This document shows positions 45,230 through 62,286 of a stretch of 64,000 bases of DNA, one piece after another (the first letter of the stretch is position 1; the number at the start of each line of letters is the position of its first letter). This stretch comes from an uncultured Anaerolineaceae bacterium (GTDB taxonomy: Bacteria; Chloroflexota; Anaerolineae; Aggregatilineales; Phototrophicaceae). The stretch spans positions 21,028-85,027 of the forward strand of contig CAZKXW010000007.1 of the NCBI GenBank assembly GCA_964556745.1. The letters are read 5' to 3'. The translations under genes were made by a program, and so were the position numbers. The notes beneath the pieces are model-generated. The model did no database searches. It had not been told where the DNA came from and saw only the letters and a list, made by a program, of their open reading frames with translations.

Positions 45230-45249
45230 GTTTCCCCCTGCACAATCCC

Positions 45250-46443
45250 TCAAACCATGAAAAACGGATCGAAGCGGTACTGCCCCTGCAAGACCGAGTC
45301 GTACAGGCGCAGTCCCTGAATGGCAAAAGCTGATACCCAGACGTTGGCGTGGGGCATCAGTTCACCGCTGCTCAGGCGTCCGAAGTAGAATGCCCCGTTC
45401 ACCCGCCGGTCATCGGATTCGGCTTGATTGCGAAGTATGACTGTCACCAGCTTATCGAGTTTGGCGCGGGTTTCTTCGGTCAGGGCAATGCGCCCCTCGC
45501 CGATGTGGATCGAGGCCAGACGGAGCGTCTGCCCCAGCACATCGACGCGCTCGTTATAGAGCGGTTGGCCGTCGTGGAAGTGGCGCGGCACATAGCCTTC
45601 GGGCGACTGCCAGCGCAGCAGCCATTCGGTGGCGCGGACGGAAGCGCTCAGGTAGTCCTCGCGGCCCAGGTATTTGCCGACTGTCCACAGCCCCTCGGCT
45701 GAATAAGCGTGCGGATGGGAATTTGTCCCGCCTTCCGTGGGGAAGGAGATGAAGCGGCCGTCCGGCTGCTGGAAGGTCAGCGCGATGTCGCAGGCTTTCA
45801 CCGCCGCCTGAAGGTATTTGTCGTGCCGGGTCGCGTCGTACAGGTTCGCCAGACCGATGGCGACTTTGGTGTGGTAGCTGCCAGAACACAGCGACCATTC
45901 CTTGTCGGACTCGATCATTGTCCGCTGATCCACATCGTAGACCGCGTAGAAGGTGCCATCCGGCTTCTGCATATCCCGGATGAGCCAATCAGCCGTTGTG
46001 ACAGCTGCGGCCAGGATCAGGGGGCGCTGCGTCGCCCGGTAGAGATTAACCAAGCCGCTGAGGATGACGCCTGTGTCGAAGGTATAGAGTTGGCTGTGCT
46101 TGAATTCGTAGCGCGACGGAACCAGCGGGAACAGGCAGCGAAAACCGCCATCCGGTTGATAAGCGGTGCGGACGAGCCAATCCCCGGCCCCGGTGGCGCT
46201 GTCCAGAAAGCGTGAGTCACCTGTCTCCTGGTAGAGATAGCACATCAGCGTCGTCAGATACCCGGTGATCTCCGAGTAGACATAGGGCATGGTCTGGGTA
46301 TCCTGCTCGTACCAGCAGGCGAAGCCCTGGCTGTGCTGCGGATTGTCGCTGACCACCTGGACGCCCGAATTCAGCAGCCATTCAGCCGCCTGGAACGCCC
46401 GCTTGGAAAGGGCAGTTGATTCGGTGGAAACATGAGATGCCAT
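45250..46443 (-). CDS. (alpha/alpha)6-barrel protein (glycosidase/epimerase/prenyltransferase-like fold)
   Basis: YSEITGY, FDTGVIL, and repeated WL...Q.PDG.F motifs. Confidence 0.7.
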   Translation of the reverse strand: MASHVSTESTALSKRAFQAAEWLLNSGVQVVSDNPQHSQGFACWYEQDTQTMPYVYSEITGYLTTLMCYLYQETGDSRFLDSATGAGDWLVRTAYQPDGGFRCLFPLVPSRYEFKHSQLYTFDTGVILSGLVNLYRATQRPLILAAAVTTADWLIRDMQKPDGTFYAVYDVDQRTMIESDKEWSLCSGSYHTKVAIGLANLYDATRHDKYLQAAVKACDIALTFQQPDGRFISFPTEGGTNSHPHAYSAEGLWTVGKYLGREDYLSASVRATEWLLRWQSPEGYVPRHFHDGQPLYNERVDVLGQTLRLASIHIGEGRIALTEETRAKLDKLVTVILRNQAESDDRRVNGAFYFGRLSSGELMPHANVWVSAFAIQGLRLYDSVLQGQYRFDPFFMV

Positions 46444-46459
46444 TTGGGAACCTTCTTTG

Positions 46460-47674
46460 TTAACGAACTCTGGCCGTCCGCCGATGGCGGATCGCATCTT
46501 CGATGCAGACATCGAGCCGCTGGCCGATGACATTCCAATCGTATTTGTCTTCGATGAGTTTGCGCCCAGCGCGACGCATATCCTCGCGCAGCACTGGGTC
46601 GCGGAACAGCCGCAGCACAGCGTCGGCCAGTTCTCGCGGCGTATCGCCCGTGAGGATTTCGCGGCCTTCCTGGGCATCGACCCCTTTGGCAGCCCAGCGC
46701 GTCGCCACGATAGGCGTGCCCAGCGCCAGCGACTCAAACAGCTTGATGCGCGTGCCGCCGCCGACTCGCTCCGGGATCAGGCCGACCCATCCCGATTGCA
46801 CAAATGGCCGCACATCACTGAGGTGCCCGACGTGAACGGCGTTGGGATATTTCGGCAGTTCCTCGACTCGCGTCCCGTCCAGCCGTCCAGCCATCGACAA
46901 TTTCGCCTCTGGGCATTCGTTCAGGATCAGCGGATAAACCTCACCCAGAAAAAACTGCATGGCGTCGAAGTTGACGTAGTAGGTCAGCGCCCCGGTGTAG
47001 ACCATCGAGTTCGGCTGCGGCGCGGCGAAGCTGCCGGTCAGCCGTTCCAGGTCGGCGCCATTGGGAATAACATCGATACGATCGTATCCGGGGATGACGC
47101 GGTGCAGCGGCTCGACTTCAGGCTGGGAGACGACCGTCACCCGGTCGTACTCGCGCATCACCTCACGCATATAGTTGGCCCACTTCGACCACATCAACTG
47201 CTTGCGCATCCGCTTGAGTGGGCTGGTTTCCCTCCCAATCTGATCGTAGAAGACGCTGATTTCGACCTCTTCCAGAATCTTGGGCGTGTTCGGGAGTCCA
47301 CGGGTATACAGCGGCATATCGATCTGGCTGGCGATGACCGCATCGAAGGCGACCCGGCTTGCCATCTCCTGCACCACAGCATCCATCTGTGGGCTGAAGC
47401 AGTCCACCAGCGACCGCGGCTTGGAACTCAAAAAACCGGCCAGTGCCTTCATCCCGCCTGGATTGAAGTTCTGGTACGTCACGACATGGACTTCCCGGCA
47501 GTGTTCCTGCATCGCCGCGATCCGCGCTGCGTCTACCGGTTCATCCGCCGCTGTGAAGGATGCTAGATACACCTCGTGATGCTTGCCGAGGTACTTCAGG
47601 AGGTTGTAAATACGAATCTTCGAGCCGTTATTGGCTGGATATGGATACCAGCGCGAAAGAAACAGCAGACGCAT
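46460..47674 (-). CDS. glycosyltransferase family 4
   Basis: YPYPANNGSKIR, IPNGAD and GGGTRIKLFESLALGTPIV. Confidence 0.9.
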   Translation of the reverse strand: MRLLFLSRWYPYPANNGSKIRIYNLLKYLGKHHEVYLASFTAADEPVDAARIAAMQEHCREVHVVTYQNFNPGGMKALAGFLSSKPRSLVDCFSPQMDAVVQEMASRVAFDAVIASQIDMPLYTRGLPNTPKILEEVEISVFYDQIGRETSPLKRMRKQLMWSKWANYMREVMREYDRVTVVSQPEVEPLHRVIPGYDRIDVIPNGADLERLTGSFAAPQPNSMVYTGALTYYVNFDAMQFFLGEVYPLILNECPEAKLSMAGRLDGTRVEELPKYPNAVHVGHLSDVRPFVQSGWVGLIPERVGGGTRIKLFESLALGTPIVATRWAAKGVDAQEGREILTGDTPRELADAVLRLFRDPVLREDMRRAGRKLIEDKYDWNVIGQRLDVCIEDAIRHRRTARVR

Positions 47675-47676
47675 CG

Positions 47677-48876
47677 TCAGTGTAAACCTTGTGATGAGTG
47701 GTTGGGCACAATCGGCGCGGGCAGGGTTTTCCCAGACTGCAAACGCCAGCCATGATCGGTCAGCAGGCCAGCATCATGCAGGATGGCACGGATGATTTGC
47801 AGGCTGCTGGTTCCATCGCCATATGGGTTGCGGACGCTGGACATGCGCTGGTAATGATCCGGTTCCTCGATGAGGCGGATGGTTTCGCGCACGATGCGGT
47901 CGGCATCGCACCCGACCAGTTTGGCCGCGCCCGCCTCGACGACTTCCTGACGTTCGGTGACTTCGCGCAGGATCAGGATCGGCTTGTGGAGGCTGGGAGC
48001 CTCTTCCTGGATGCCTCCCGAGTCGGTCATGACCAGATATGAACGGTCGATCAGTTTGACCATCGTCCGGTAGTTGACCGGATCGGTCAGGGTGATATTG
48101 GGAATACCACCGAGGATCTCATAGGCCGGGCCGCGCACATTCGGGTTGTAATGCACCGGGAACACGAAGTGGGTCGAATCCTGATAGCGGTCGGCCAGGG
48201 TACGTAAGGCCGAGCAGACGTTCAGGAAGGGTTCGCCAAAGTTCTCGCGCCGGTGGGACGTGACCAGGATCACACGTTTGCCATCCAGCACCGCCGAGAC
48301 CTCATGCAGTGGTTCGTTGTGGACGCGCTGCGCTGTCATCAGGAGGGCGTCGATGACCGTGTTGCCCGTGACCAGGATGTGATCCGGGTTGACTCCCTCC
48401 CGGAGCAGATTCATGCGAGTCTGCTCGGTAGGCGTGAAGTAGAGATCGCTCATCAGATCGGTAATGCGGCGGTTGACTTCCTCGGGGAAGGGCTGGCGGC
48501 GGTCATGCGTCCGCAGCCCCGCTTCGATGTGCCCCAGCTTGACATTGTGGTAGAAGGCCACCAACCCGGCAGCCATGGCCGAAGTCGTATCGCCCTGCAC
48601 CAGCACCCAGTCCGGTTTGGCTTCGGTCATCACCTGATCCAGGCCGGTGATGAGGGTCGCCGTCAGCCCGGAAAGGGTTTGGTTGGGCTTCATCACGTTC
48701 AAATCATAATCGGGCTTGATATCGAATATTTCAAGAACCTGATCGAGCATTTCACGGTGCTGGCCGGTCACGCAAACCACCGGTTGCAGCCATTCTCGGT
48801 ACTCTTCAATCGCCTTGACGACCGGGGACATCTTGATCGCTTCAGGCCGCGTCCCAATCACCACCATCACTTTCAT
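47677..48876 (-). CDS. wecB: UDP-N-acetylglucosamine 2-epimerase (non-hydrolysing)
   Basis: GTRPEAIK, TGQHREML, QGDT, HIEAGLR, HRREN and TDSGGIQEEA. Confidence 0.96.
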   Translation of the reverse strand: MKVMVVIGTRPEAIKMSPVVKAIEEYREWLQPVVCVTGQHREMLDQVLEIFDIKPDYDLNVMKPNQTLSGLTATLITGLDQVMTEAKPDWVLVQGDTTSAMAAGLVAFYHNVKLGHIEAGLRTHDRRQPFPEEVNRRITDLMSDLYFTPTEQTRMNLLREGVNPDHILVTGNTVIDALLMTAQRVHNEPLHEVSAVLDGKRVILVTSHRRENFGEPFLNVCSALRTLADRYQDSTHFVFPVHYNPNVRGPAYEILGGIPNITLTDPVNYRTMVKLIDRSYLVMTDSGGIQEEAPSLHKPILILREVTERQEVVEAGAAKLVGCDADRIVRETIRLIEEPDHYQRMSSVRNPYGDGTSSLQIIRAILHDAGLLTDHGWRLQSGKTLPAPIVPNHSSQGLH

Positions 48877-49060
48877 CACTTGGATTGATCTCCACCACCT
48901 ATTTTCGTTATGTTCAATTGTTAATGACTGCGCCTTGCAATTGCCTTTCGCTTGGTTTGATGTCACGTAAATAATCCAAACAGTCCATTTCATACTACGC
49001 TCATGCAGAGATCCGGCGCGTTATAATCAGCCGGGATTGAATCCGAAAGCAGAGGTATTC

Positions 49061-49874: not shown

Positions 49875-50564
49875 CTAGATATGGCGGATGACCGACAGCA
49901 CCTTGCCCTGAATCTGGCACACCCGCGGATCGACATAGATCGGTTCCATGTGGGGGTGGGCGGGCTGGAGGCGGATGCGTCCGGCTTCTTGATAGAAATA
50001 CTTCAGGGTGGTTTCGCTACGGTCGGTCAGCCAGATGGCGACCATCTCACCATTCCGGGCAGTGTTCTGCTTGCGGAGGATGACGACATCGCCTTCGCGG
50101 ATCATCGCGTCCACCATCGAGTCGCCTTTGACGCGCAGGGCATAGGCGTTGTTCGGGTCAGAACCGCGCAGCATATCCTCGGTGACTTCCATCAGGCTGT
50201 CTTCGTCGTAGGCATAATCTTCGGGTACGGGGACGGGCTTGCTGGCGAAGATGTTGCCGATCAGCGGGATACGTGGAGCTTCCAGAGCCGCCTGCACCGC
50301 GATTTTGCCATCGCTGCGCGGCTCGGTTCCGGGGACGACCTGCGTCAATTGCAGCCCGCGCGAAACATGCTGCGACCGTTTGAGGTAGCCGGCCTGCACG
50401 AGCTTGTTCAGGTTGTAATTAACGACCGAGGTGGATTTGATGCCTGTGTTTTCTCCGATCTGCCGGATAGTGGGTGGATACCCGTGATTTTCCAGATAAT
50501 CCTGGATATAGCGCAACATATTGCGCTGCCGTTCGGAGAGTTTATTAAAATCCTTCATGGTCAT
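49875..50564 (-). CDS. lexA: SOS repressor LexA
   Basis: Winged HTH GYPPTIRQIG...STSVV; catalytic GDSM and TLK; LQPA. Confidence 0.95.
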   Translation of the reverse strand: MTMKDFNKLSERQRNMLRYIQDYLENHGYPPTIRQIGENTGIKSTSVVNYNLNKLVQAGYLKRSQHVSRGLQLTQVVPGTEPRSDGKIAVQAALEAPRIPLIGNIFASKPVPVPEDYAYDEDSLMEVTEDMLRGSDPNNAYALRVKGDSMVDAMIREGDVVILRKQNTARNGEMVAIWLTDRSETTLKYFYQEAGRIRLQPAHPHMEPIYVDPRVCQIQGKVLSVIRHI

Positions 50565-50585: not shown

Positions 50586-50644
50586 CGAATGATTGTTCTA
50601 TTGAGTATAGGCGAACTCCTGTTCGGTTGTCAAATATTTGTTCG
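50586..50644. promoter_or_regulatory. three LexA (SOS) boxes upstream of lexA
   Basis: Perfect CGAAC-tcct-GTTCG at 50612-50625; CGAAT-gatt-GTTCT at 50586-50599; CAAAT-attt-GTTCG at 50631-50644. Confidence 0.85.
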
Positions 50645-50771
50645 ATTCAAAGCAGATTATGCTTGGCGTGAGGGTGAAAACAGGTCTTCGACCGGAATAG
50701 CAAAATAGAACCGAGGGGCGCAATCTCTGCGCCCCTGGCTGGCATGATGGGAGTGTGTTGGCACGGCGTGA

Positions 50772-53700
50772 TTATGAGCCGGGGGTGGGTGTGACGGGGA
50801 GGCCGCCCATCGCCTGGACACGGCGCAGCATCTCGTCGGTGAGAGTCCCGGTAAGGCTCTGGTAAATTTGGTAGTCGGAGAGGGCTTTCTCGAATTCGCC
50901 GAGGCCGTAGTAGAGAGCACCGCGACGGTCGTAGCTGTCGGGACTTTCCGGTTGGATGCGGATAGCCTCGCTGTAGTCGGCTAAGGCAAGATCAAAGGCT
51001 CCCATGGCTTCGTGGGAGCGGCCCCGATTGTAATAAGCATCGGCGAAATCCGGCCGGTTGGCGATGGCTGTCGTGAAATCTTCGATAGCCTGCGGGTAGC
51101 CCTGAGCGCGGAACCACAGCCGCCCCCGCTGATAAAATGCTTCGGCATGGGTCGGATCGATGTCGATGACGCGGTTGTAGCTCTTCATGGCCGATTCCTG
51201 ATCGCCGAGGGCGGAATAGGCGCGTCCCTGATTGTAGAGGGTATCGACGTTATCGGGGTCGGCAGCCAGCACCACAGCGAAGTCGTCCAGCGCCAGCTGC
51301 GGATCGCCGAGGGCGAGGTAGTTGCGTCCACGCTGGTAGTAGGCGTCCAGACGGGTTGGGTCAAGGATGATGGCTTCGGTGAGGTCACGGTTGGAGCTGA
51401 CCAGATCGCCGAGTTCCTGACGGGCGCGGGCGCGGAGGAAATAGGCATCCGCATCCTGAGGGGCGAGGTGGATGGCCTGGCTGAAGTCATCGACGGCAGC
51501 CAGGAGGTTGCCCATATCCTGGTAAATGCGACCGCGCAGCATGAACGAATCGGCATCTTCTGGCTGAATGCGGATGGCGGTTTCCAGGTCAGCCAGCGCC
51601 AGTTCAAAGTCCTGGGTGAGGCGGTAAACGCGGGCACGTTCATAATAGAGACCGGCATCGTTAGGGGCGATTTCGATGGCACTGGCGAGATCGGCCAGTG
51701 CCTCAGGATACCGCTCCAACTGAGCATAGACGCGGGAGCGCTGGTAGAAGACATCCGAGTCAGGCTGGCCGAGGGCGATGGCCTGGGTGAAATCGGCCAG
51801 CGCCGCTTCCAGATCGCCGAGGCCGACCAGGGAACGTCCCCGGTTGTAAAAGGCATTGGCGCGGGCAGGATTGATACGGATCACTTCGCTGAAATCGGCG
51901 ATGGCTTCCTCGAACTGCCCATTAAGGCGGTAGAGGCGTCCACGCTGGTAGATAGCGTCTTCGTAGTTGGGCAGCAAGCGGATGGCGGTGTCAAAGTCTT
52001 CGAGAGCGCCGACGGTATCGGCCAGAGTCACTTTCAGGCGCGCTCGTTCATAGTAAAGTTCGGGGTTGTCCGGCAGGAGATCGATGATGGTATTGAGGTC
52101 GGTCAGCGCCTTCTCGCCTTCGCCCACAGAAGCCCAGGCATTGGCGCGGTAGCGGTAAGCGTCGGTGTATTCGGGGGCCTGGTCGATGACGGCTGTGAAA
52201 TCGGCGATGGCGCCCTCGAAGTCGCCGCTGCTCAGGCGGACCTGTCCCAGCAGCAGCCGGGCATCCATATCCTCAGGCCGACCTTCAACGACCCGCTCGA
52301 AATCGGAGATGGCGGCCGGGAAATTGGCGAGGCGGAAGTAGGCGACGCCGCGATAGAAGAAGCTGTCTTCATCTTCAGGATCGATGCGGATGGCCTCGGT
52401 GTAATCAGTGATGGCTTCCTGGTAGCGTTCCGCCTCAACAAGAGCGCGGCCACGGCGGATGTAGCCCTCGACTCCGCCGGGGTTCAGGCGGATGACTTGG
52501 GTAAAGTCGGCAATGGCGCGGGGCAGATCACCGAGGGATTGCCAGGCACGGCCACGGGCGGTATAGGCGTCTTCGTAGGTGGCGTCGAGGTCAATCGCCT
52601 TCGAGAAGTCATCGATGGCGGCCTGAGTCTGGTTATTGAGCATCTGGGCGCGACCGCGCAGAAAGTAGGCTTCGGGATTATCCGGGTCCAGGTTGATCGC
52701 CAGGGTGTAATCGGAGATGGCTTCGGCGTATTGGTTGGAGTCGGCGTAAATGCGACCACGCACGAGAATGGCATCGATATTCTGAGGATCAAGGTCGAGA
52801 ACAACAGCAAGATCAGCCAATGCGCTGGGAAGATTACCCGTCTGGCGGAGGACGAGGGCACGGCGGTAGTAGGGATCGAAATCCTGTGGATCGATCTCAA
52901 TGGCACGGTTGAAGTCGGCCAGGGCGTCATCAAAGCGCAACAACTGGCGGCGGGCTTCGCCGCGCTGGTAGTAGGCGGTGGCGTTGGCAGGCTGGGCGGT
53001 AATGACGACCGTGAAATCTTCTTCCGCGCCCATCCAGTCGCGGGCGGAGAGGCGCACCAAGCCGCGGTTGAAAACATAGTTGAGGCTGTCGGGATTCAGC
53101 CGTATGGCGGTCGAGAAAGACTCAACCGCGCCGGAGGTATCCAGCAGGATGTTGCGAACGTAGCCGAGATAGGCATAGACAACATCCAGGGACAAAACAG
53201 AAGCGCGGTTCTCGTCGTTGTTGACCGTTCGCAGAGCCGTAGCAAAGAGTGTTTGCGCGCGTTCGTACTGGCGATTGAAAACAGCCAAGATGCCAGTCAT
53301 GACCTGAACAGTATAGAGTCCATCGCTGGTCGAAGTGACGATCATTTCGAAGTTCTCGATATCAAGGTCGAGCTTCAGCTTGGGGGCGATGAGGGGCTGC
53401 GGTTTCTTTTCGGCAGGCGGCAGGATGACGTTGATCCGCAGGATAAAGTCATCTACCCGCGGAAAAACGACCATGGAAGCATTGGTTTGTTCTAGCAAGG
53501 CGCGGCCAACGGAACGATCTGAGATGGGACGCGCCAGCGTGCAGACCGTCCCTGCGCCCGCGCTGGAGAGCGCAGCTTGAATCTGGCGCACCTGATTCAT
53601 GACGGCGCTGCCGGAATCGCCAGCTTCGGAGGCGAGCGGCGCGATGATGAGCAGGATTTCGCCCTCAGAAGCGGGCGGACAGGCGGTCTGGATCAAGGGC

Positions 53701-53867
53701 TGCGGCGTCGGGACGGGTGTGCGCTCGGCAGCCTGCCCGATGCGATGGGAACTGGATGCCGCCTGAACATGAAACCCCGGGGCCATGCTGAATAGCACCA
53801 GGACGATCAGGGCAGCCAGCAGAAGACCGGGGCGAAGATCCCAAGAGCCGTAATTCGTGTTTCTCAT
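50772..53867 (-). CDS. secreted TPR-repeat protein (roughly 22-23 34-aa repeats)
   Basis: Hydrophobic signal ending VQA-A; repeats of AYY.RG......G....AI.DF..AI.L.P over about 780 aa. Confidence 0.9.
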   Translation of the reverse strand: MRNTNYGSWDLRPGLLLAALIVLVLFSMAPGFHVQAASSSHRIGQAAERTPVPTPQPLIQTACPPASEGEILLIIAPLASEAGDSGSAVMNQVRQIQAALSSAGAGTVCTLARPISDRSVGRALLEQTNASMVVFPRVDDFILRINVILPPAEKKPQPLIAPKLKLDLDIENFEMIVTSTSDGLYTVQVMTGILAVFNRQYERAQTLFATALRTVNNDENRASVLSLDVVYAYLGYVRNILLDTSGAVESFSTAIRLNPDSLNYVFNRGLVRLSARDWMGAEEDFTVVITAQPANATAYYQRGEARRQLLRFDDALADFNRAIEIDPQDFDPYYRRALVLRQTGNLPSALADLAVVLDLDPQNIDAILVRGRIYADSNQYAEAISDYTLAINLDPDNPEAYFLRGRAQMLNNQTQAAIDDFSKAIDLDATYEDAYTARGRAWQSLGDLPRAIADFTQVIRLNPGGVEGYIRRGRALVEAERYQEAITDYTEAIRIDPEDEDSFFYRGVAYFRLANFPAAISDFERVVEGRPEDMDARLLLGQVRLSSGDFEGAIADFTAVIDQAPEYTDAYRYRANAWASVGEGEKALTDLNTIIDLLPDNPELYYERARLKVTLADTVGALEDFDTAIRLLPNYEDAIYQRGRLYRLNGQFEEAIADFSEVIRINPARANAFYNRGRSLVGLGDLEAALADFTQAIALGQPDSDVFYQRSRVYAQLERYPEALADLASAIEIAPNDAGLYYERARVYRLTQDFELALADLETAIRIQPEDADSFMLRGRIYQDMGNLLAAVDDFSQAIHLAPQDADAYFLRARARQELGDLVSSNRDLTEAIILDPTRLDAYYQRGRNYLALGDPQLALDDFAVVLAADPDNVDTLYNQGRAYSALGDQESAMKSYNRVIDIDPTHAEAFYQRGRLWFRAQGYPQAIEDFTTAIANRPDFADAYYNRGRSHEAMGAFDLALADYSEAIRIQPESPDSYDRRGALYYGLGEFEKALSDYQIYQSLTGTLTDEMLRRVQAMGGLPVTPTPGS

Positions 53868-53999
53868 GTCCTGCCTGCCTCATTTCGTGACCGGGCTGGA
53901 CGACGCATGTGTCGCCTCTATGCTGCTGTTCTATTTTAATGGAAAATGAGAATCGGATCGCGCCGCGCGCGTCCCTCGGTGTCCAAGGTCAGAAGGCCC

Positions 54000-55097
54000 T
54001 CAGATGTTATGGTCCTGCATGGTGCTGCGGCCGTTAAGCGTGACGTTGGCGGTAGCCGCTCCCATGATGCGGTTAGCGAGAAAGGCATTGCGTTCCTGCT
54101 CGTGACCACGGACGCCAGCCGTCTCATCGATGCCGAACTGGGCGCGGATGTCGCCACGACTGATGACGGTATTATTGGCGACCATGCAGTCGGTTGCGCC
54201 GGAGGTATCGGTATCGTCGAGGATGATTTCGCTGTAGGTATTGTGCTGTTTCTGGCCGTTTTCGCGGACGAGATTGCCGATGACGGTCGTCCGGGCGCCG
54301 CCACGGATGCGAATACCGTTTTGCTGGTTGCGGAGAACAGTATTGTTGAAAAAGGCGTTGTCGTTCACCTCGATGCTGTAGAGGCCATCGCCGCCGTTTT
54401 CGCGCGACAGACTGCCAATCACCTCATTGGAGTGGGAGCCGTTCTGGATGGTGAAGCCGTTGCCCTTGTTTTCGTAGGCGAGGTTCTGGCTGAGGATGCA
54501 GAAGCGCGAATTGGTAACCAGGTTGAAGCCATGACGGTCGTTGTTGAAGGCGATGCAGCCTTTGACGATACTGGTTTGCACACCGTCCAGCGTGAAACCA
54601 TCGAGGCCGTTGTGGTGAGATACACAGTCCACCAGGGTCAGGCGGGTAACGACCTCGTGCGGGTCGAAGCCGTAATCATGGAAGTGATGGGCTTCGACCC
54701 GCAGGCAGGAGATGTCGTAGTCCGATGTGGGCTGGTCGGGGATGACGCCGCAGTAGAAGCCAACCTGTTCGACTTCAGCCTGATTATCACGGTTGCCGTC
54801 GAGGGTCAGGTCACGGACACAGACATTGCGCGTACCACGGCCATAGGGTGTCCGCACGAGGCCGACGATGCGCGTGTTGGTGTTGTCGGCGATCTTGAGG
54901 ACAGTTGTGCCCATGCCGGCCCCGGCCAAGGTGATGCCGTCTGTGAGCAGAATGGACTGTGAGAGAATATAGGTTCCGGACGGGATGAAAACCGTGCCAC
55001 CATCGAAGCTGGCGGCATTGACGGCCAGCTGAACGGCATCGGTATCATCGGTACGGCCATCACCGCGGGCGCCGTAATCCTGAACGTTGAAGATCAT
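54000..55097 (-). CDS. AlgE-type mannuronan C5-epimerase A-module (beta-helix), no signal peptide
   Basis: FNVQDYGARGDG.TDD, GAGMGTT, VRDLTLDGNRDN, YGFDPHE, NGLDGFTLD and NDRHGFN. Confidence 0.85.
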   Translation of the reverse strand: MIFNVQDYGARGDGRTDDTDAVQLAVNAASFDGGTVFIPSGTYILSQSILLTDGITLAGAGMGTTVLKIADNTNTRIVGLVRTPYGRGTRNVCVRDLTLDGNRDNQAEVEQVGFYCGVIPDQPTSDYDISCLRVEAHHFHDYGFDPHEVVTRLTLVDCVSHHNGLDGFTLDGVQTSIVKGCIAFNNDRHGFNLVTNSRFCILSQNLAYENKGNGFTIQNGSHSNEVIGSLSRENGGDGLYSIEVNDNAFFNNTVLRNQQNGIRIRGGARTTVIGNLVRENGQKQHNTYSEIILDDTDTSGATDCMVANNTVISRGDIRAQFGIDETAGVRGHEQERNAFLANRIMGAATANVTLNGRSTMQDHNI

Positions 55098-55124
55098 CGG
55101 GTGATTTCCTCCGCTGTCCGGCGA

Positions 55125-56348
55125 TCAGGCATTCATGGCGCGAATGGCGGTGACATCATTCATGGCGAAGTCGCTGGTGGCTGCACCGCTGACTCGGTTG
55201 GCGACGTAAGCGTTGCCGACCTGCAGAACGTTGCCGTCACCGGGGGTTTCACGAATGCCGTAGCGGGCGCGGACTTCCTTGCTGCTGGTGATGTGGTTGG
55301 ACATGATGGCACAATCCACGGTAGGGATTGCCCCGTCGTCATCGATGAAGATTTCGCTGAAGCGATTGTGTTCGCTCTGAGAGTTGTCGCGTATGCGGTT
55401 GCCAACGACAGTAGTGCGGGCACAACCGCGCAGCCGAATGCCATTCTCCAGATTTTCAGCAATCAGGTTGTTGGAGATGACGTTGTCGTTGACACCAATG
55501 CAGTACATCCCATCGCCCGTGTTCTTGTAGGCCATGCAGCTGGTGATATGGATGTCGAAGGAGCCGTTCTGGATGGTAAATCCGTTGGCGTTATTCTCGT
55601 AGGCGATGTTCTGGTCGAGGATGACATTGCGCGAACCGGTGATGACGTTGAAGCCGTGACGGATGTTGTTGAAGGCAATGCAGCCACGGACGACGCCATT
55701 GATAATACCGTCCACGGCGAAGCCATCGCGGACGTTGTTATGGCTGACGCACTCGATCAGGAAGAGGCGGTCGGTCAATTCGTGCGGGTCGAAGCCGTAC
55801 CCCTGGAAGCTGTGCGTCTCGACGCGCCAGCAGACGATATCCTCATCGGGGGGGCGGACATCGGCTTTGACGCCGGCGAAGAAACCAAATTGCAGGCCAG
55901 AGGACTGGTTGGCGCGGTTGCCGTCCAAGGTGATGTCACTGATGCGAACGTTGGTGAGGGGCTGGTCGCCGCGGGCGATCTGGGTGCGGATGACGCCGAT
56001 GATATCGATGCCGACTTCATCACGGACTTTGAGGGTGGTCGCGCCCATGCCATCGCCGAAGAGGGCAGTGTGGCTGAGCATCTCAATCGAGGCTGAGACC
56101 AGATAGACCCCGGCGGGGACATAAACTGAACCGCCACCGGCAGCGAAAGCCGCGTTGACGGCGGACTGGATGGCGAAGGTATCATCAGTGGCGCCATCGC
56201 CGACCGCGCCGAAGTCCCGCGCGTTGAGGGCCAGGCCGGTGGGGTTGGTTCCGGGCGGCGGCTGCATGGCGGGGCTGAGGCCGAAAGGAAGCGCAGCAGC
56301 CCCAGCCGCCATCGTCTTCAAGAAAGCGCGTCTGTCTATCGATTGCAT
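55125..56348 (-). CDS. AlgE-type mannuronan C5-epimerase A-module with a Tat signal
   Basis: DRRAFLK twin-arginine leader; NARDFGAVGDG.TDD, TLDGNRAN, GYGFDPHE, DGFAVD and RHGFNV. Confidence 0.85.
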   Translation of the reverse strand: MQSIDRRAFLKTMAAGAAALPFGLSPAMQPPPGTNPTGLALNARDFGAVGDGATDDTFAIQSAVNAAFAAGGGSVYVPAGVYLVSASIEMLSHTALFGDGMGATTLKVRDEVGIDIIGVIRTQIARGDQPLTNVRISDITLDGNRANQSSGLQFGFFAGVKADVRPPDEDIVCWRVETHSFQGYGFDPHELTDRLFLIECVSHNNVRDGFAVDGIINGVVRGCIAFNNIRHGFNVITGSRNVILDQNIAYENNANGFTIQNGSFDIHITSCMAYKNTGDGMYCIGVNDNVISNNLIAENLENGIRLRGCARTTVVGNRIRDNSQSEHNRFSEIFIDDDGAIPTVDCAIMSNHITSSKEVRARYGIRETPGDGNVLQVGNAYVANRVSGAATSDFAMNDVTAIRAMNA

Positions 56349-56372
56349 CGGCAAACTGATCCTCGAATTGAA

Positions 56373-59231
56373 TTACTGGGCTGAATCACCGGGGATGGCC
56401 GCATTGGCGACCAGGACATCGGTGATATTGGACGCATCCAGCGCGATCTGGTCGTAGCCCCAGAAGGGAACCAACGTATCATCCGCGCGGACGATGGCAC
56501 CCATCACCGAGGTATCGATGAGCAGGGTTGTCCGCTCCAGCGCCAGCGCCGCCAGATGCGCGCCAGGTTCGGTCACGCCGGTTGCCACAATCATATGACG
56601 ATCCGAGTTCCAGGGCGAGTCGCTCGTCCAGATGAACCCGGAGTCCAGGGTGGGCAGGATGGCATTAATGCCCACGCCGGTCAACAGGTTAGCCTGACGG
56701 CTGAGCAGGTCGCTGAGTGCCTGACGCTGCACCGAGCCGAGGACGATGATGTTGGCAGTCGCCAGCACATCCTCGTCCAGCGCGGAGGGGGTCATCACGC
56801 GCAGCGAGCTAGAAGGATGGCCGTTAGCCCCCAGGAAAGCGACCAGACGCACCAACTGGTTGAGTTCAGCTTCGGTGGGCGCATCCGGAATGATGATGGC
56901 CGTCGGCGTGGCCGTTTGCATCGACAGGAAGGGGAACGGATAGCTCGCCAGACTAAAGTCGTCAGGCTGGCGTTCGCCCCAGGATAGGGTGGTATAAGCA
57001 TCGATCTGCTGCCAGAGACGGATGACCGGAACGTCCGGGCTGGTCATGGCGCTGGCCGGGAAGGACAGGCTCAGGACGAGCGGCTTCTGAGGATTGGCCG
57101 CGACGATCTCGGCAGCAGGAGCCAGCGAGAGCGTGAGCGGCTGGGCGGCGGATGAGTCAATCTTCTGAACGCCGATGAGCGTGTCATTGAGCATGACGGT
57201 GATGGGTGTGCCGTTTTGCAGCAGGTTCAGGGCGGCGCTGTCGATGTGCAGGGTCAACTGAGCCGGATCGATGTTATCGGTGACGATCAGCGTGTACTGA
57301 CGCTGGAACTGCCCGGACTCATCGGGGTGGGTATCGATGGTGTGGTCAAGCTGCTCCAGGCGGATGCTGGCCGGGCTGCTAGTGCTGACGGTCTGGAAGA
57401 AGGCCGTGCCCAATTCCTGTTCCATCATGGCGCGGGCGCCTTCGGCATCCAGGATTTGACCACGCAGGCGGTAAAGCTGATTGGGATCGGCAGCGGCCAA
57501 GACGATCATATCGCTGACATCCCAGGGGGCACGGGCGATGCGGATGGGGTTTTTGTCCAGCTCGGCGAAGGGTTCGGTGTCCATGAGGCGTTCGCCTTGG
57601 CGAGGATAGTCGTACATGCTGGCGACAATGCTGGCGACGTAACCCTCGGCGGGCGGACGGCCCACGGCGATCAGGTTGGAGATTTCGACTTCGGCTTCGG
57701 TCAAGGTGGAGGTCTTGACGACACGGATGAAGTCGGCCTGGCGCATGATTTCTTCACCCATGCGGGCGATATCCGGCAGGGCCGCATTGAGCAGGTTCAG
57801 ATCGGTCGGATCGGCGATCGCGATGAAAGTGGTGCGCTGTTCGCCGAAGACGACAGGAAGCACTTCCAGCCCATCCTGGCCGGGACGGTAGAAATGGCCA
57901 ACTTCGGCCAGGCCGGGAATATCGGCCACCCAGACATCCTGCGAACGGAAGGCAATGATGCCGAGAACAAACATGACCGCGGCCGTCACGGTGCGATAGA
58001 CGTTGGTCAGCAGCATCTTGGAGAGGTTTCTGGCCTTCTGCCCGGCTCCGCGCGTCAGCCAGCCAGTTTCCCAGAGGGTGACAAGGGCATGGACTTTGAC
58101 GACGGACAGGAAAATGGAAAAGAACGAATAGGCAGGCACGACCCAGAAGCGTTTGGTTTCCAGGAGGTAGGGATAAATCTTGATGGCGCGGCTGATGATC
58201 CACCAGATGGCGAGGATGCCTGCAGAGAGGTAGTGCTGCGTCAGGATCAGGATAGTCATGTACCAGATCGCCAGAGCAAGCGTGAAGGTGCTCATCATCC
58301 GGTCGAGGGTATAGAACATCATGATCGGGTTGCGAACCATCCAGGGCTTGCGCTGGAAGATGGCCCGCAGGTCGGAAAACCATGAATTCCGTGCCCAGCG
58401 AAGGCTCTGCGAAACGTAAACACGCGGGCTGGATTCGGGCCGTGTGTAGACTTCGCTATCGACGATGACGGCAGTATGGTAGCCGGCGTCTTGCAGGAAG
58501 GTGGTGAGGCACTTGTCTTCACCACCGCCGGTCTTGCGGATGCCGAGCCACTGTTCGTTGACCAGATTGGCGCTGATTTCCTTGAGCGGCCCGGCGAGGT
58601 AAGCTGAGCAGCGACCGCTCAGGCAGGACATATAACCGCCGACGGCCTGCCCGGGGGCTTCGATGTGATAACGGAGTTTAAGGCGGATATCGAAGAGGTG
58701 GTGCATCAAGTTCGCCGGTTGGTAGACGCGCTGCTTGACGGTAACGCCACCGATGCCCGGTTTGCTGAAAGTCTCCAGGATTGACTGCTTAACGCCTTTA
58801 CCAAAGATGGTGTCACTGTCCATGCAGATGATGATGTCCATGCCCTCGACCATGGCGATGGCGGCTTTGAGACCTTTACGCTTGCCCTTTTCGTAGACGA
58901 TCTCCCAGCGGATATCGATCTCACCGGCGTGTTCCTGGGCAAAACGGTCGGTCAGGGCCATGTTGTCATGTTCGCCCTGGTCGAAGGTGATGCAAACCTG
59001 GTCGATGCGTTCACGCAGGAGCGAATCCAGCACCTTCTGGAAAGTCTCTGGCGGCTCACCTTTGACGGTCATAGCCGCGCCGACCCGTTTATAAGGCAGT
59101 TCGCCCGTGGCCTTGATATCGCGCCAGCGCGCGGACAGCAGCAGCTTAAAGAGCCATGCTCCGTGGCGAATCGCGCCGATCACCCCGAAGGGGATGAGGG
59201 CAATGAGCGCTGAAATCACATCCTGAGACAT
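56373..59231 (-). CDS. processive GT2 polysaccharide synthase fused to an extracellular BcsB-like domain
   Basis: TM; KGKR, DSD, CLSGRCSAY, GED and QSLRW; further TMs; W.TR; C-terminal YPFPF..TAIIIPD, NIIVLG and SPWN...ATG. Confidence 0.85.
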   Translation of the reverse strand: MSQDVISALIALIPFGVIGAIRHGAWLFKLLLSARWRDIKATGELPYKRVGAAMTVKGEPPETFQKVLDSLLRERIDQVCITFDQGEHDNMALTDRFAQEHAGEIDIRWEIVYEKGKRKGLKAAIAMVEGMDIIICMDSDTIFGKGVKQSILETFSKPGIGGVTVKQRVYQPANLMHHLFDIRLKLRYHIEAPGQAVGGYMSCLSGRCSAYLAGPLKEISANLVNEQWLGIRKTGGGEDKCLTTFLQDAGYHTAVIVDSEVYTRPESSPRVYVSQSLRWARNSWFSDLRAIFQRKPWMVRNPIMMFYTLDRMMSTFTLALAIWYMTILILTQHYLSAGILAIWWIISRAIKIYPYLLETKRFWVVPAYSFFSIFLSVVKVHALVTLWETGWLTRGAGQKARNLSKMLLTNVYRTVTAAVMFVLGIIAFRSQDVWVADIPGLAEVGHFYRPGQDGLEVLPVVFGEQRTTFIAIADPTDLNLLNAALPDIARMGEEIMRQADFIRVVKTSTLTEAEVEISNLIAVGRPPAEGYVASIVASMYDYPRQGERLMDTEPFAELDKNPIRIARAPWDVSDMIVLAAADPNQLYRLRGQILDAEGARAMMEQELGTAFFQTVSTSSPASIRLEQLDHTIDTHPDESGQFQRQYTLIVTDNIDPAQLTLHIDSAALNLLQNGTPITVMLNDTLIGVQKIDSSAAQPLTLSLAPAAEIVAANPQKPLVLSLSFPASAMTSPDVPVIRLWQQIDAYTTLSWGERQPDDFSLASYPFPFLSMQTATPTAIIIPDAPTEAELNQLVRLVAFLGANGHPSSSLRVMTPSALDEDVLATANIIVLGSVQRQALSDLLSRQANLLTGVGINAILPTLDSGFIWTSDSPWNSDRHMIVATGVTEPGAHLAALALERTTLLIDTSVMGAIVRADDTLVPFWGYDQIALDASNITDVLVANAAIPGDSAQ

Positions 59232-59320
59232 GGGCTGTCACCCTACCATTCCGTTACACATTCACTCTGATTTAGGGCCGGCCGCTCACTCACTGCGGTC
59301 GGGCAAAGTTGCTTTATGAG

Positions 59321-59355
59321 AGAAAGAGGGGTGGGTTATTCCGCCCCGCCTTTCT
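59321..59355. terminator. intergenic hairpin between the dehydrogenase and GT2 genes
   Basis: AGAAAGAGGGGTGG-gttatt-CCGCCCCGCCTTTCT, an imperfect stem. Confidence 0.5.
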
Positions 59356-59389
59356 TCAATTCGATCACCCGGAGACGCCCCAGGTGGGG

Positions 59390-60619
59390 TTAGTCGCCGG
59401 CCAGCGCAGCGCTCTCTTCGGCATCGAAGCGGAAGGGCATGACTTTCGGCAGAGGCTTGGCATCTGTCTTTTCCAGGACGGGCACCGCTTCGGAATGCGC
59501 GTCGTAGCCAAGATGCCCATTCGACGCAGCGGAAGCTGCGGTTCCGTTCGGCGCAGCGATGATCGCGGCATCTTCGCCGATCCAGGGAGTGACCGGCTTG
59601 GGCGCCGTTTTCTTGAGAACTGCTTCCTGGTACTGGTCATAGGCAGCAAGCGCCTGACTGCGCAGCTTGGCGGCGTTCATGCGGCGGAAACCGCCTTTGA
59701 CGGGCTGGGGTACTGCGCCCTTCTCGGCCAGATCGATGAACATGTCGTTGACGGCACGGGTGGCGGCCAACTGCGGCATTTCGATGCCTTCCTGCTTGGC
59801 CAGGGCGAGGGTGGCAGCCACATCCTTGGGCAGGCATTTGCCGCCGTAGGGGAAACCGCTGGCTGTGCCGTACCAGCGATTCAACGCGCCTTCGCTCATG
59901 CGGATGGCAAGGTCGATGGCCTGCTGGCCGTCAATGCCCATCTGCTTGAGCATGAGGCCCATCTGGTTGAAGTAGGAGATGATGGTGGCGTTGTAGGTGT
60001 TGACGATGACCTTGCTGGCCTCGGCCACATCGACCGGGACGACCGACATCAGGCGGTCACGTTCGGGGCCGAGTTCGGCGCCGAGCATCTGCACAAGGGT
60101 CTGTCCAGTGCGCTCGTCGAGCGCGCCGATGACGACCTGCCAGATGTTGGATTCGTCTTCGTTGGCATCGGTCTCACGCAGGATTTCGGGCATGTGGGCA
60201 TAGCCGAAATGGACGCCAGCCTTCAACCCGGAGTGGCTTTCGAGGCGCGGGATGATCTCGCGTTCAGAGAGTTTGGGCAGCATGGTACTGCGCATGACGA
60301 CCATCGGGTAGTAGCCTTGATCAACGCGCTTTTTCAGCCAGGGGCCGATGACCTTCAAGCCTTCCCGCATGTAATCCAGGAAGATAGAGCCGTCGATTTC
60401 GGATTGAGGGGTCGAAATGGCGACGAAGAGCATGTCGGCGGTGCAGGCCATGAAATCATCCATGTGTTCGGCGGGAATGCCCTGAGCGCGGAGCTTGCTG
60501 ATGGTCTCCGGGTTCACATCATAGCCAGTGATGGTGTATCCCCGGTTGTGCCAGGTGTGCAGAATTCCCTGCCCAACCACGCCGCTGCCAACTACCGCAA
60601 GCTTGATCTCGTGTTTCAT
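59390..60619 (-). CDS. UDP-glucose/GDP-mannose 6-dehydrogenase family protein, short form lacking the usual C-terminal domain
   Basis: GSGVVG, STP, RST, PEILRE, AEASK...N and GFPYGGKCLPKD (Cys262); about 110-aa Ala/Pro/Lys-rich tail. Confidence 0.88.
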   Translation of the reverse strand: MKHEIKLAVVGSGVVGQGILHTWHNRGYTITGYDVNPETISKLRAQGIPAEHMDDFMACTADMLFVAISTPQSEIDGSIFLDYMREGLKVIGPWLKKRVDQGYYPMVVMRSTMLPKLSEREIIPRLESHSGLKAGVHFGYAHMPEILRETDANEDESNIWQVVIGALDERTGQTLVQMLGAELGPERDRLMSVVPVDVAEASKVIVNTYNATIISYFNQMGLMLKQMGIDGQQAIDLAIRMSEGALNRWYGTASGFPYGGKCLPKDVAATLALAKQEGIEMPQLAATRAVNDMFIDLAEKGAVPQPVKGGFRRMNAAKLRSQALAAYDQYQEAVLKKTAPKPVTPWIGEDAAIIAAPNGTAASAASNGHLGYDAHSEAVPVLEKTDAKPLPKVMPFRFDAEESAALAGD

Positions 60620-61185
60620 GGTGTATTCCCCTTTATCCTTACCCAACGGTTTTCGTTCGATGGCTTGGAGCAAGTTTGTTCCAGACTGTCGAACCCTTCG
60701 CGCGCCGTTCAAGGCGCCTTGTTCTTGTCGCTGTTCTGAACACACAAAGGACGTGACCGGACGGTACATCCTAATTGTTCGTTCTGCGCATTCTGATCCT
60801 TGTTCCGAGTTCAGCAGTCTGTGAAGGCTCTGGCACTGCTAACGACGCAGAACTTGCTAGAAAGTTGCGGTCAGTCTCTCCGCTAACGTTGTCCTTGTGA
60901 CCAGCGCAGTACAAAACTTTGCAGAACTGTTGGCAGGATACCGAGACAGCCTAACACTCAACTAAAGACCTAGAGACTGTTATTAAAGGGCTAGAATGCA
61001 CATTTTGGGGGTTTTTCCACGACTAAAGTACTGCTTGACAGGCCATAAAACGAAAAAAGTGGTTACCCATGTAAGGAGGAACTGGGTCAGGAGATTTACA
61101 GAATTTAAGGAATCGATGAGAGTCGGGTTAAATGCTGAAAATGATGCGGGCGAATCACCGTGCAAGGTCGATTCGAGACCAGCAT

Positions 61186-62286
61186 TCAGTTTACACAAGC
61201 CTCATCAGCGGCGGCGTTTTCCAGCGCTTCGCGGTTGACGCGGCCATCGCCGTTGTCTTCGATGCAGTTGCCGCGAATCAGGGCGATTTCGGCAGGCAGC
61301 GGCTCAAAGAGCGCGTTGATGCCGAAGTAAGCATTGTTCCGAATGATGTTGCCCATGACGACATTGCTGCGTCCGGTTTGGCCGGCGGCCGCGCTACCCG
61401 GCCCTAAGCGAATGCCGCTGCCCGCGTTGTGTTCGATGCGGTTGTTGACGATGATGTTGTCATGACCGTTGACGTTGATGCCGCCGCTTTGGGGGTCGCT
61501 GGTCTGGTACGCGCAGTAGTTGCCCTCGACCAGATTGAAGGAGGCGTTTTCCTTGATATCGACGCACTCGCTGCCGGTTCCATCGGGAAGGCCGAGGTTG
61601 AAGGTGTTGCCAGTGATCCAGTTGAAGCGGGTCTGGTCATCGGGCTGCTGGCTCTCGGTAGAGCCAATATAGATGGCCTCGCGGTTATCGCCGGTACTGC
61701 CGCCGCCCAGACGCCCACAGTATTCAAAGCGGCTGTCCTGAATGACATTGTGGGCGGCGTTCAGGCGGAGTCGGACGCATTCCTCACGGGCGTTGCGCAG
61801 GACGAGGTTGGAGAGGGTCAGGCGGGTGACATCGGCGGAGGCGACGTAAACCAGCTTCTTGCGGTAGTCGCCGGGCGTGTATTCGCCATCGATGGTGAAG
61901 CCGTTCAGGGTGAAGTTGCCGGTGAAAACCTCGACGATGTAGGTATCGCCGGCGCCGAACAGGACGGCGGCGGGTGAACCGGTGATGGTGATGGGAGCGG
62001 TGCTCGCCAGGCAGTCGGGGCGGTTCAGGTCGATGTCTTCTTGGTGGCGACCGTCGGCAAGCTGGATGGTAGTGCCGCAGGGAACCTGCTCCAGAGCCTG
62101 TTGCAGTGTTTGGAAAGGGGGGGCTTGGCCTGCGATTGAAGCGGGCACGTCCTGGCTGCCCAGGGCGGCGACAAAGGTCGGCAGGGGGTAGGCGGCCAGG
62201 CGGCGCGGCTGTGGGCTGATAAAGATCGCCAGCAGCAGGGCGAAGAAGCTGAGCGTAATCCAGGCGGGGGGAAGCAGGCGGTTCAT
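61186..62286 (-). CDS. exported right-handed beta-helix protein, polysaccharide lyase-like (PL31-like)
   Basis: N-terminal hydrophobic leader; EECVRLR, EAIYIGS and ECVDIKE; Asn-ladder repeats. Confidence 0.72.
   Translation of the reverse strand: MNRLLPPAWITLSFFALLLAIFISPQPRRLAAYPLPTFVAALGSQDVPASIAGQAPPFQTLQQALEQVPCGTTIQLADGRHQEDIDLNRPDCLASTAPITITGSPAAVLFGAGDTYIVEVFTGNFTLNGFTIDGEYTPGDYRKKLVYVASADVTRLTLSNLVLRNAREECVRLRLNAAHNVIQDSRFEYCGRLGGGSTGDNREAIYIGSTESQQPDDQTRFNWITGNTFNLGLPDGTGSECVDIKENASFNLVEGNYCAYQTSDPQSGGINVNGHDNIIVNNRIEHNAGSGIRLGPGSAAAGQTGRSNVVMGNIIRNNAYFGINALFEPLPAEIALIRGNCIEDNGDGRVNREALENAAADEACVN

Follow-up and report, generated by a model that had tools for sequence, protein, structure and literature searches.

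A cluster of six genes in an uncultured Anaerolineaceae bacterium of the phylum Chloroflexota probably directs the synthesis of an alginate-type polymer, a β-1,4-linked mannuronate chain partly epimerized to guluronate, without Alg8, Alg44, AlgK or the AlgE porin. The cluster lies in a 64,000-nt stretch of DNA (hereafter the window; GCA_964556745.1, CAZKXW010000007.1, positions 21,028 to 85,027), part of contig C7 of a 4.6-Mb genome that is 94% complete. Gene content, conservation, folds and catalytic residues are established, and a mannuronate/guluronate polymer, as named in the original prediction, is the best reading of the gene content; we infer every substrate, topology and product discussed below. 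The open reading frames (ORFs) are all on one strand and intact, with zero internal stops in an ORF check of the window, and the six gene identities first proposed were upheld. In gene order they are as follows, with a possible transcript end beyond the last gene:

61186..62286, minus strand: lyase-like protein, 366 amino acids (aa) from the ATG; β-helix, PL31 (PsAly)-like, secreted or membrane-anchored, accessory
59390..60619, minus strand: short nucleotide-sugar 6-dehydrogenase, 409 aa; PF03721 and PF00984 only
56373..59231, minus strand: GT2-BcsB fusion, 952 aa; processive GT2 with a BcsB-fold module
55125..56354, minus strand: epimerase A, 409 aa; AlgE-type A-module with a twin-arginine signal, without R-modules
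54000..55097, minus strand: epimerase B, 365 aa; paralogous AlgE-type A-module without R-modules or signal peptide
50772..53867, minus strand: TPR protein, 1031 aa; signal-bearing, N-terminal domain specific to the cluster; accessory and likely a scaffold
50714..50736, minus strand: 10-bp hairpin 3' of the TPR gene; possible transcript end

The start of the dehydrogenase was placed at the Met at 60619, where its homologs begin, and not at the longer-ORF start at 60769. Intergenic gaps, in order from the lyase to the TPR gene, measure 566, 158, 18, 27 and 132 bp, and because of the first of these the lyase may be transcribed apart from the other five genes. With 12 observed against an expectation of 10.0, terminator-like sites were no more frequent than by chance. 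The epimerase motif YG[FI]DPH[DE] was found exactly twice in six frames of the whole 4.6-Mb genome, both times in the cluster, and the GT2, dehydrogenase and lyase are each present in one copy. A hydroxyacid dehydrogenase gene flanks the cluster upstream and lexA downstream. Recent insertion of the cluster was considered and rejected, given a GC content of 0.595 against 0.602 for the genome and ordinary GC at third codon positions. The two flanking genes lie on separate contigs in all five congeners tested, and no empty site was demonstrable.

A search with a dehydrogenase-clade profile gave matches in seven of 382 genomes of the order, the host included, which by kinship represent about three lineages and are not independent; in a class-wide sample of 401 genomes it matched the host only (0/400 others). 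The dehydrogenase, GT2 and epimerase genes are adjacent in all seven dehydrogenase-bearing genomes and form the core, with the lyase and TPR genes accompanying it in five and therefore accessory. The expectation that the genes would co-occur in other genomes thus holds for the core and in part for the lyase and TPR protein. A contig scan with one protein as query recovered three close relatives. In three genomes (G005, G008 and G026) the complete set is present with its gene order unchanged, the G008 contig stopping within the TPR gene. In G026 the flanks differ, with lexA and the upstream gene on other contigs. G640 contains the dehydrogenase, GT2 and both epimerases, and G639 the dehydrogenase, GT2 and first epimerase, followed by the contig end; the lyase and the N-terminal domain of the TPR protein were not found in either with window-derived queries. 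In G503, from another family, the dehydrogenase, GT2 and one epimerase with a twin-arginine signal are followed by the lyase and TPR genes on the opposite strand. Four of nine loci from a metagenome scan belonged to the clade, and the epimerase had no match on plasmids. Near-identical DNA was present, among the runs listed, in one freshwater run, possibly the source of the assembly, and in two runs from a single hot-spring study, and in no sludge run among them. None of the listed runs was of RNA, which speaks neither for nor against expression. Given this and the narrow distribution across the order and class, the idea that such a cluster is the source of the 'alginate-like' gels of sludge found no backing.

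Epimerase A matches the A-module of AlgE4 with an E-value of 1.1e-52, and epimerase B is 46–49% identical to epimerase A. The nearest characterized relatives of the window epimerases are AlgE4 and AlgE6, with ~34–37% identity to AlgE4. Both retain Y149, D152, H154 and D178 of AlgE4, which are the catalytic residues (PMC8824271). R148, the determinant of lyase activity in AlgE7 (PMC8824271), is absent from both proteins and from their clade, position 148 being G in epimerase A and D in epimerase B. Epimerase B carries E117 and Y122, residues that are compatible with epimerase activity and occur in active AlgE7 (PMC8824271). The clade was defined as the best 33 of 92 proteins from the epimerase B search (B included) together with epimerase A, and these 34 proteins of 363–415 aa end after the A-module with an RTX motif in none. 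FastTree sets them apart from the Azotobacter and Pseudomonas enzymes. All four catalytic residues are retained in 31 of the 34, across 44–82% identity, and R90, D173, R195, H196 and Q225 in all of them. Export, originally predicted for the epimerases, is borne out for epimerase A, which has a twin-arginine motif (PF10518 just below the cut-off, TIGR01409 just above) in a genome that encodes TatC, but not for epimerase B, which has no signal peptide. As a separate observation, the clade members P0136, P0139 and P0153 are missing part of the DPH motif, and P0136 may be a degenerate second copy.

The dehydrogenase comprises PF03721 and PF00984, without the C-terminal PF03720 and without part of the N-terminal Rossmann fold. 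Among solved structures AlgD (1mfz) comes closest in sequence, profile and fold comparisons alike, with a profile E-value of 4e-37 compared with 4e-25 for the runner-up and the top Foldseek match, and the catalytic motif GGxCLPKD is invariant in the window clade. The AlgD counterpart of the original prediction is therefore correct as to the nearest solved relative but not as to orthology: grouping with AlgD was rejected by an approximately unbiased test (p-AU 0.009), and with no PF03720 the three-domain type was also discarded. The short dehydrogenases instead form one clade (support 100/99) apart from that of AlgD, with bootstrap not fully settled. The only assayed short-type dehydrogenases encountered were the brown-algal GDP-mannose dehydrogenases (GMDs; PMC4782291), which are 315–320 aa long, have an N-terminal Rossmann fold that is not complete and are distinguished from their bacterial counterparts by Val, Ala-Val and Pro at defined places in the motifs. 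The window protein shares the ~320-aa core, the shortened Rossmann fold, and the Val at GxGxVG and Pro at xGGxCLPKD (before YGG), both invariant in its clade, which has Glu-Thr in place of Ala-Val; these traits also mark much of the short family and not the window clade alone. The short dehydrogenase likely converts GDP-mannose to GDP-mannuronate.

Dehydrogenase trees were built from subsets of 160, 78 and then 42 rows, with rows shorter than 275 or longer than 500 aa dropped. No brown-algal sequence was among them, and MBP7967557.1 (Woesebacteria), given as the closest bacterial match to brown-algal GMD in PMC11468063, served as proxy. This protein belongs to the short family, and the window protein is 32% identical to it. 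A sister grouping of its clade with the window clade was obtained at 47/95 in the best tree and was neither established nor rejected; the same grouping scored 0.925 in FastTree and 92 and 94 in quick trees, as against the bootstrap of 47 in the careful tree. No brown-algal GMD was recognized among the 150 best representatives of the short family. Two divergent short dehydrogenases (P0320 and P0377) group with MBP7967557.1 at 99/95, and in one of them the helical domain is internally duplicated.

The GT2 part of the fusion (approximately residues 1–430) has intact DSD, GEDK and QSLRW motifs and C-terminal membrane helices, features of a processive GT2 of the hyaluronan-synthase (HAS)/NodC branch. 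Its best PDB matches are hyaluronan synthases (profile E-value 4e-32). Identity to HAS and NodC is ~25%, and the NodC NCBIfam score is 74 against a cut-off of 550 bits. Directly following the catalytic base, the GT2 and all five Alg8-like proteins compared have Lys (G[ED]DK), whereas two NodC proteins and one HasA-like protein have Arg at that position. Identity between the GT2 and an Alg8-like protein is 24% across a stretch of 148 residues. In a 27-row tree the five Alg8-like proteins nest with the GT2 family at 96/97. The second half of the protein (approximately residues 440–930) is a BcsB-fold module, a fold that combines carbohydrate-binding and flavodoxin-like domains, with PF03170 above its cut-off at 760–852 (E-value 2.9e-11) and all top Foldseek matches being BcsB (E-value 5.7e-16; model pLDDT 65, TM-score ~0.33, identity to BcsB 13–14%). 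From the topology of HAS, the module is predicted to face outward. Other members of the GT2 clade bear different modules or no extension, which makes the BcsB fusion one form among several. P0213–P0216 of this clade have an Ig/cadherin-like C-terminal module (tandem-95, PF17963) in place of the BcsB-like one, and by sequence comparison the outer module is exchangeable within the clade.

The lyase-like protein matches the Pfam families Beta_helix and DUF1565 and has a hydrophobic stretch at residues 5–23 of its N-terminus. It retains the PsAly catalytic pair Y184/K221 and metal ligands E181, E216 and D219 (roles from PMC6796002), together with K128 and R156, and differs at H154 (R), D250 (N), K252 (N) and D188. 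Homologs were present in 41 of the 382 genomes, five with the cluster and 36 in one other genus (g264), and the family is thus not confined to clusters of this kind. Four of the 36 loci in that genus were inspected (L063–L066; G696, G704, G690 and G713), and all were catabolic, holding a short-chain dehydrogenase/reductase, an oligoalginate-lyase-like gene, GH88, an ABC transporter, the PL31-like lyase and IclR. These loci point to a uronate as the substrate of the lyase family. The best PDB match of the large lyase encoded there is an oligoalginate lyase (E-value 7e-20), and the genus is a possible consumer of alginate-like polymers. Searches of the host genome with PL15-like, GH88 and PL14 queries returned no match, and in view of the first two the window lyase is unlikely to serve feeding.

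The TPR protein matches TPR families and has a hydrophobic stretch at residues 14–32. Its N-terminal domain is unique in the host genome and lies beside the core in G008, G026 and G503, and in G005 the whole protein, 85% identical, is beside the core. By analogy with AlgK, it is a putative scaffold. The six genes could also be a loose set. That the GT2 and dehydrogenase make a wall- or lipid-linked glycan, with the lyase, TPR protein and epimerases serving other ends such as the use of outside alginate, would fit the 566-bp gap, the catabolic setting of the lyase in the g264 loci inspected and the failure to find lyase and TPR genes in G639 and G640. It is nevertheless very improbable, given the adjacency of dehydrogenase, GT2 and epimerase in 7/7 genomes, the cohesion of the genes in G026 despite different flanks and in G503 after inversion, and the lack of downstream catabolic genes among the matches in the host genome.

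Relatives of the dehydrogenase and GT2 also occur in other settings. The GT2 profile matched five of 400 other genomes of the phylum and three of 251 in the class of G1025, a member of another Chloroflexota class. Two loci are of note:

L048:1084-12586: G1025 cluster
L061:8295-16935: G1319 cluster

In G1025 a short dehydrogenase and a GT2, respectively 35% and 33% identical to the window families, lie with a double AlgG-type epimerase (two DPHD motifs), ManC, a TPR protein and another AlgG-type gene. G1319 has the same set minus ManC. The short dehydrogenases of both possess all four brown-algal signature residues. Elsewhere, G865 has the GT2 with a PL14 lyase and an AlgG-type gene, G826 and G1079 have a β-helix protein without the DPH motif, and in G1060 no such partners were seen beside the GT2.

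Taken together, these data suggest a route in which ManC, encoded alone outside the cluster, would supply GDP-mannose for oxidation to GDP-mannuronate by the short dehydrogenase. The HAS-type GT2 would polymerize mannuronate and, without an Alg44 partner, export the chain by a membrane channel that it forms itself, and the fused BcsB-fold module would guide the chain outside. Epimerase A, exported by the twin-arginine pathway, would then convert mannuronate (M) to guluronate (G) through the AlgE Tyr/His/Asp site. Epimerase B may perform the same conversion, and the accessory lyase and TPR protein would trim or release chains and act as scaffold, respectively. In favour of this polymer, four independent genes have links to alginate enzymes (the epimerases to AlgE4/AlgE6, the dehydrogenase to AlgD, the lyase to PsAly and the GT2 to Alg8-like proteins through its Lys), the dehydrogenase shares traits and family with brown-algal GMD and its closest bacterial match, neither epimerase has R148, and the same dehydrogenase and GT2 families lie with AlgG-type epimerases and ManC in G1025. 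The host genome encodes ManC and two other full-length sugar dehydrogenases.

Several observations weigh against an alginate product. The dehydrogenase is only ~33% identical to AlgD, is by sequence not an AlgD orthologue and lacks the AlgD C-terminal domain, and its short family is broad, taking in archaeal proteins without an assigned substrate. The GT2 profile scores NodC and a HasA-like protein at 135–161 bits compared with 75–80 bits for Alg8-like proteins, and the nesting of the latter with the GT2 family is on a very long branch (4.56 changes per column), with the alternative placement not rejected (p-AU 0.056). Both epimerases are altered at the AlgE4 groove residues K117, D119, Q156, R249 and K255, and AlgY, an AlgE homologue, is inactive on mannuronan (PMC4444821). 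The lyase match to PsAly (6kfn) is statistically weak (E-value 0.16), and the protein lacks D250 and K252, mutants of which leave PsAly with 0.25% and 0.03% activity (PMC6796002). The ManC gene of the host is not in the cluster. In the more distant G1079 cluster, the partner of the GT2 is a full-length dehydrogenase resembling UDP-glucose dehydrogenase, so the GT2 family may serve more than a single substrate.

Such points raise the possibility, rather doubtful though deserving consideration, that a different acidic polymer is made along similar lines. It would be either a glucuronan or, in the manner of hyaluronan synthases, a heteropolymer in which uronate alternates with a neutral or amino sugar, its uronates C5-epimerized by AlgE-fold enzymes of changed specificity. 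Hyaluronan synthases as the closest solved GT2 relatives, the profile's preference for NodC and HasA-like proteins over Alg8, the altered groove residues of the two epimerases and of the lyase, and the UDP-glucose-type dehydrogenase of G1079 are all consistent with this. So is the presence of GH88, a family acting on unsaturated glucuronyl substrates, beside the lyase relatives in the catabolic locus, although the large lyase of that same locus best matches oligoalginate lyase. The window dehydrogenase lacks the DxRIG Arg of the aligned UDP-glucose enzymes and aligns there with the LN segment of AlgD, which argues against this alternative. The ManC within the G1025 cluster and the activity of the nearest characterized epimerase relatives on mannuronan argue likewise.

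A second alternative retains mannuronate as the monomer, with the AlgE-like proteins being inactive binders, as AlgY is, or lyases, and the product polymannuronate or short oligomers. Positions 117 and 119 of the window epimerases resemble the pattern of P0179, which we take to be AlgY. The absence of R-modules, the loss of catalytic residues in three of the 34 clade proteins and the missing export signal of epimerase B point the same way. However, retention of all four catalytic residues in the other 31 proteins, at 44–82% identity, and the absence of R148 from both epimerases make this alternative improbable. AlgE enzymes need R-modules for full activity, yet A-modules alone suffice for epimerization (PMC4444821).

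An alginate-type polymer thus remains the preferred product, made by parts that differ from those of known systems. As in the Pseudomonas/Azotobacter alginate system, the dehydrogenase gene adjoins that of a GT2, accompanied by a YGFDPH C5-epimerase, a lyase and a TPR protein, but none of the window genes is an orthologue. A BcsB-fold fusion, AlgE-type epimerases and a PL31-like lyase replace Alg44, AlgG and PL5, and the TPR protein is generic. When Alg8, Alg44-like, AlgI, AlgJ, AlgF and AlgX sequences of a single alphaproteobacterial alg operon served as queries, the host genome gave no match (tblastn, E ≤ 1e-4), so that counterparts of the AlgIJFX acetylation proteins were not detected. Omp85 was also not found in this 94% complete genome by a search whose control was positive in 7/14 genomes. 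The predicted absence of Alg44 and acetylation genes is accordingly upheld for those queries, and a host without an Omp85 match fits the predicted lack of an outer membrane, the AlgE porin family itself not having been searched. By sequence, the cluster falls outside the canonical alg operon family.

Compared with Azotobacter AlgE1–7 and P. syringae PsmE, the window epimerases have the A-module fold and the four catalytic residues, but differ in lacking RTX R-modules, in being encoded beside the synthase, in forming a separate clade, in their export signals (twin-arginine in epimerase A, absent from epimerase B), and in their altered groove. The pairing of dehydrogenase and synthase is that of hasAB, and class I hyaluronan synthase and NodC are the top GT2 matches; the window GT2 departs from them in its G[ED]DK motif, which in them reads G[ED]DR, in its BcsB fusion and in the epimerases alongside. 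Its C-terminal half shares the BcsB fold with cellulose synthase BcsA/BcsB, whereas the module is shorter and fused to a non-BcsA synthase.

Similarity to the brown-algal pathway is uneven. The dehydrogenase resembles brown-algal GMD in its short length, GxGVVG motif and Pro before YGG, and the brown-algal lyase SjAly (PL41) shares the PsAly catalytic residues that the window lyase retains. Brown-algal epimerases (ManC5-E) are reported to be closer to AlgG than to AlgE (PMC5778160), whereas those of the window are AlgE-type. A cluster of the window kind is therefore unlikely to have been the donor, and the suggested bearing on the origin of brown-algal alginate genes holds at the level of the dehydrogenase family only. 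On sequence grounds the G1025 and G1319 clusters are a better proxy for the donor than the window. Actinobacterial homologs of brown-algal alginate genes have already been invoked (PMC8307928, PMC5778160). The novelty claimed for alginate genes outside Pseudomonas and Azotobacter must also be narrowed, given the atypical alg operons already published (PMC7112194) and canonical-type operons on alphaproteobacterial plasmids. The top plasmid match of the window dehydrogenase is algD, the first gene of such an operon in Salipiger (NZ_CP014600.1). Canonical-type alg genes were seen on 14 plasmid records (nine Rhizobium, two Loktanella, and Salipiger, Jannaschia and Tateyamaria), with the full operon inspected in Salipiger only.

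The cluster is the AlgE/BcsB form of a wider family of synthase-dependent polyuronate systems in single-membrane bacteria, and this family seems not to have been described before. No publication on this cluster, or on mannuronan epimerases of Chloroflexota or Anaerolineae, was found in a literature search with thin coverage of subscription journals and supplements excluded. With less than even confidence, we further propose that this family is a second route to true alginate in single-membrane bacteria, in which a short GMD and a self-exporting HAS-type mannuronan synthase are combined with either AlgG-type epimerases or stand-alone, Tat-exported AlgE A-modules, and that it could be the bacterial pool for brown-algal GMD and perhaps for the mannuronan synthase. 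The latter has not been identified in brown algae according to PMC11468063, which describes algal GT2s without Alg8 homology. Under this proposal no earlier mannuronan synthase than the GT2 would be independent of Alg44 or cyclic di-GMP.

Should the product be alginate, three or four genes would suffice for its synthesis with no outer-membrane apparatus, the GT2 would define a candidate family of non-Alg8 mannuronan synthases, and searches based on alg8 and alg44 would miss such clusters. If another polyuronate is made, the AlgE-fold epimerases would have a new substrate. The 34 natural R-module-free AlgE-type proteins are candidates for tailoring alginate, and the cluster is a minimal cassette open to laboratory test.

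Two further features lie beyond the TPR gene. A neighbouring glycan cluster on the minus strand (43874–48993) encodes a WecB UDP-GlcNAc 2-epimerase, a GT4, a GH76/GH88-like α/α-barrel protein and an FAD oxidoreductase, and was not found beside the polymer cluster in the G005 or G026 loci. Upstream of lexA (49875–50564), a sigma-70-type promoter with an 11/12 match is present at 50604–50633 on the minus strand, and its spacer contains a perfect GAAC-N4-GTTC palindrome at 50624. This is presumably the LexA box of Gram-positive bacteria and Chloroflexi, and its position in the promoter likely reflects LexA autoregulation.

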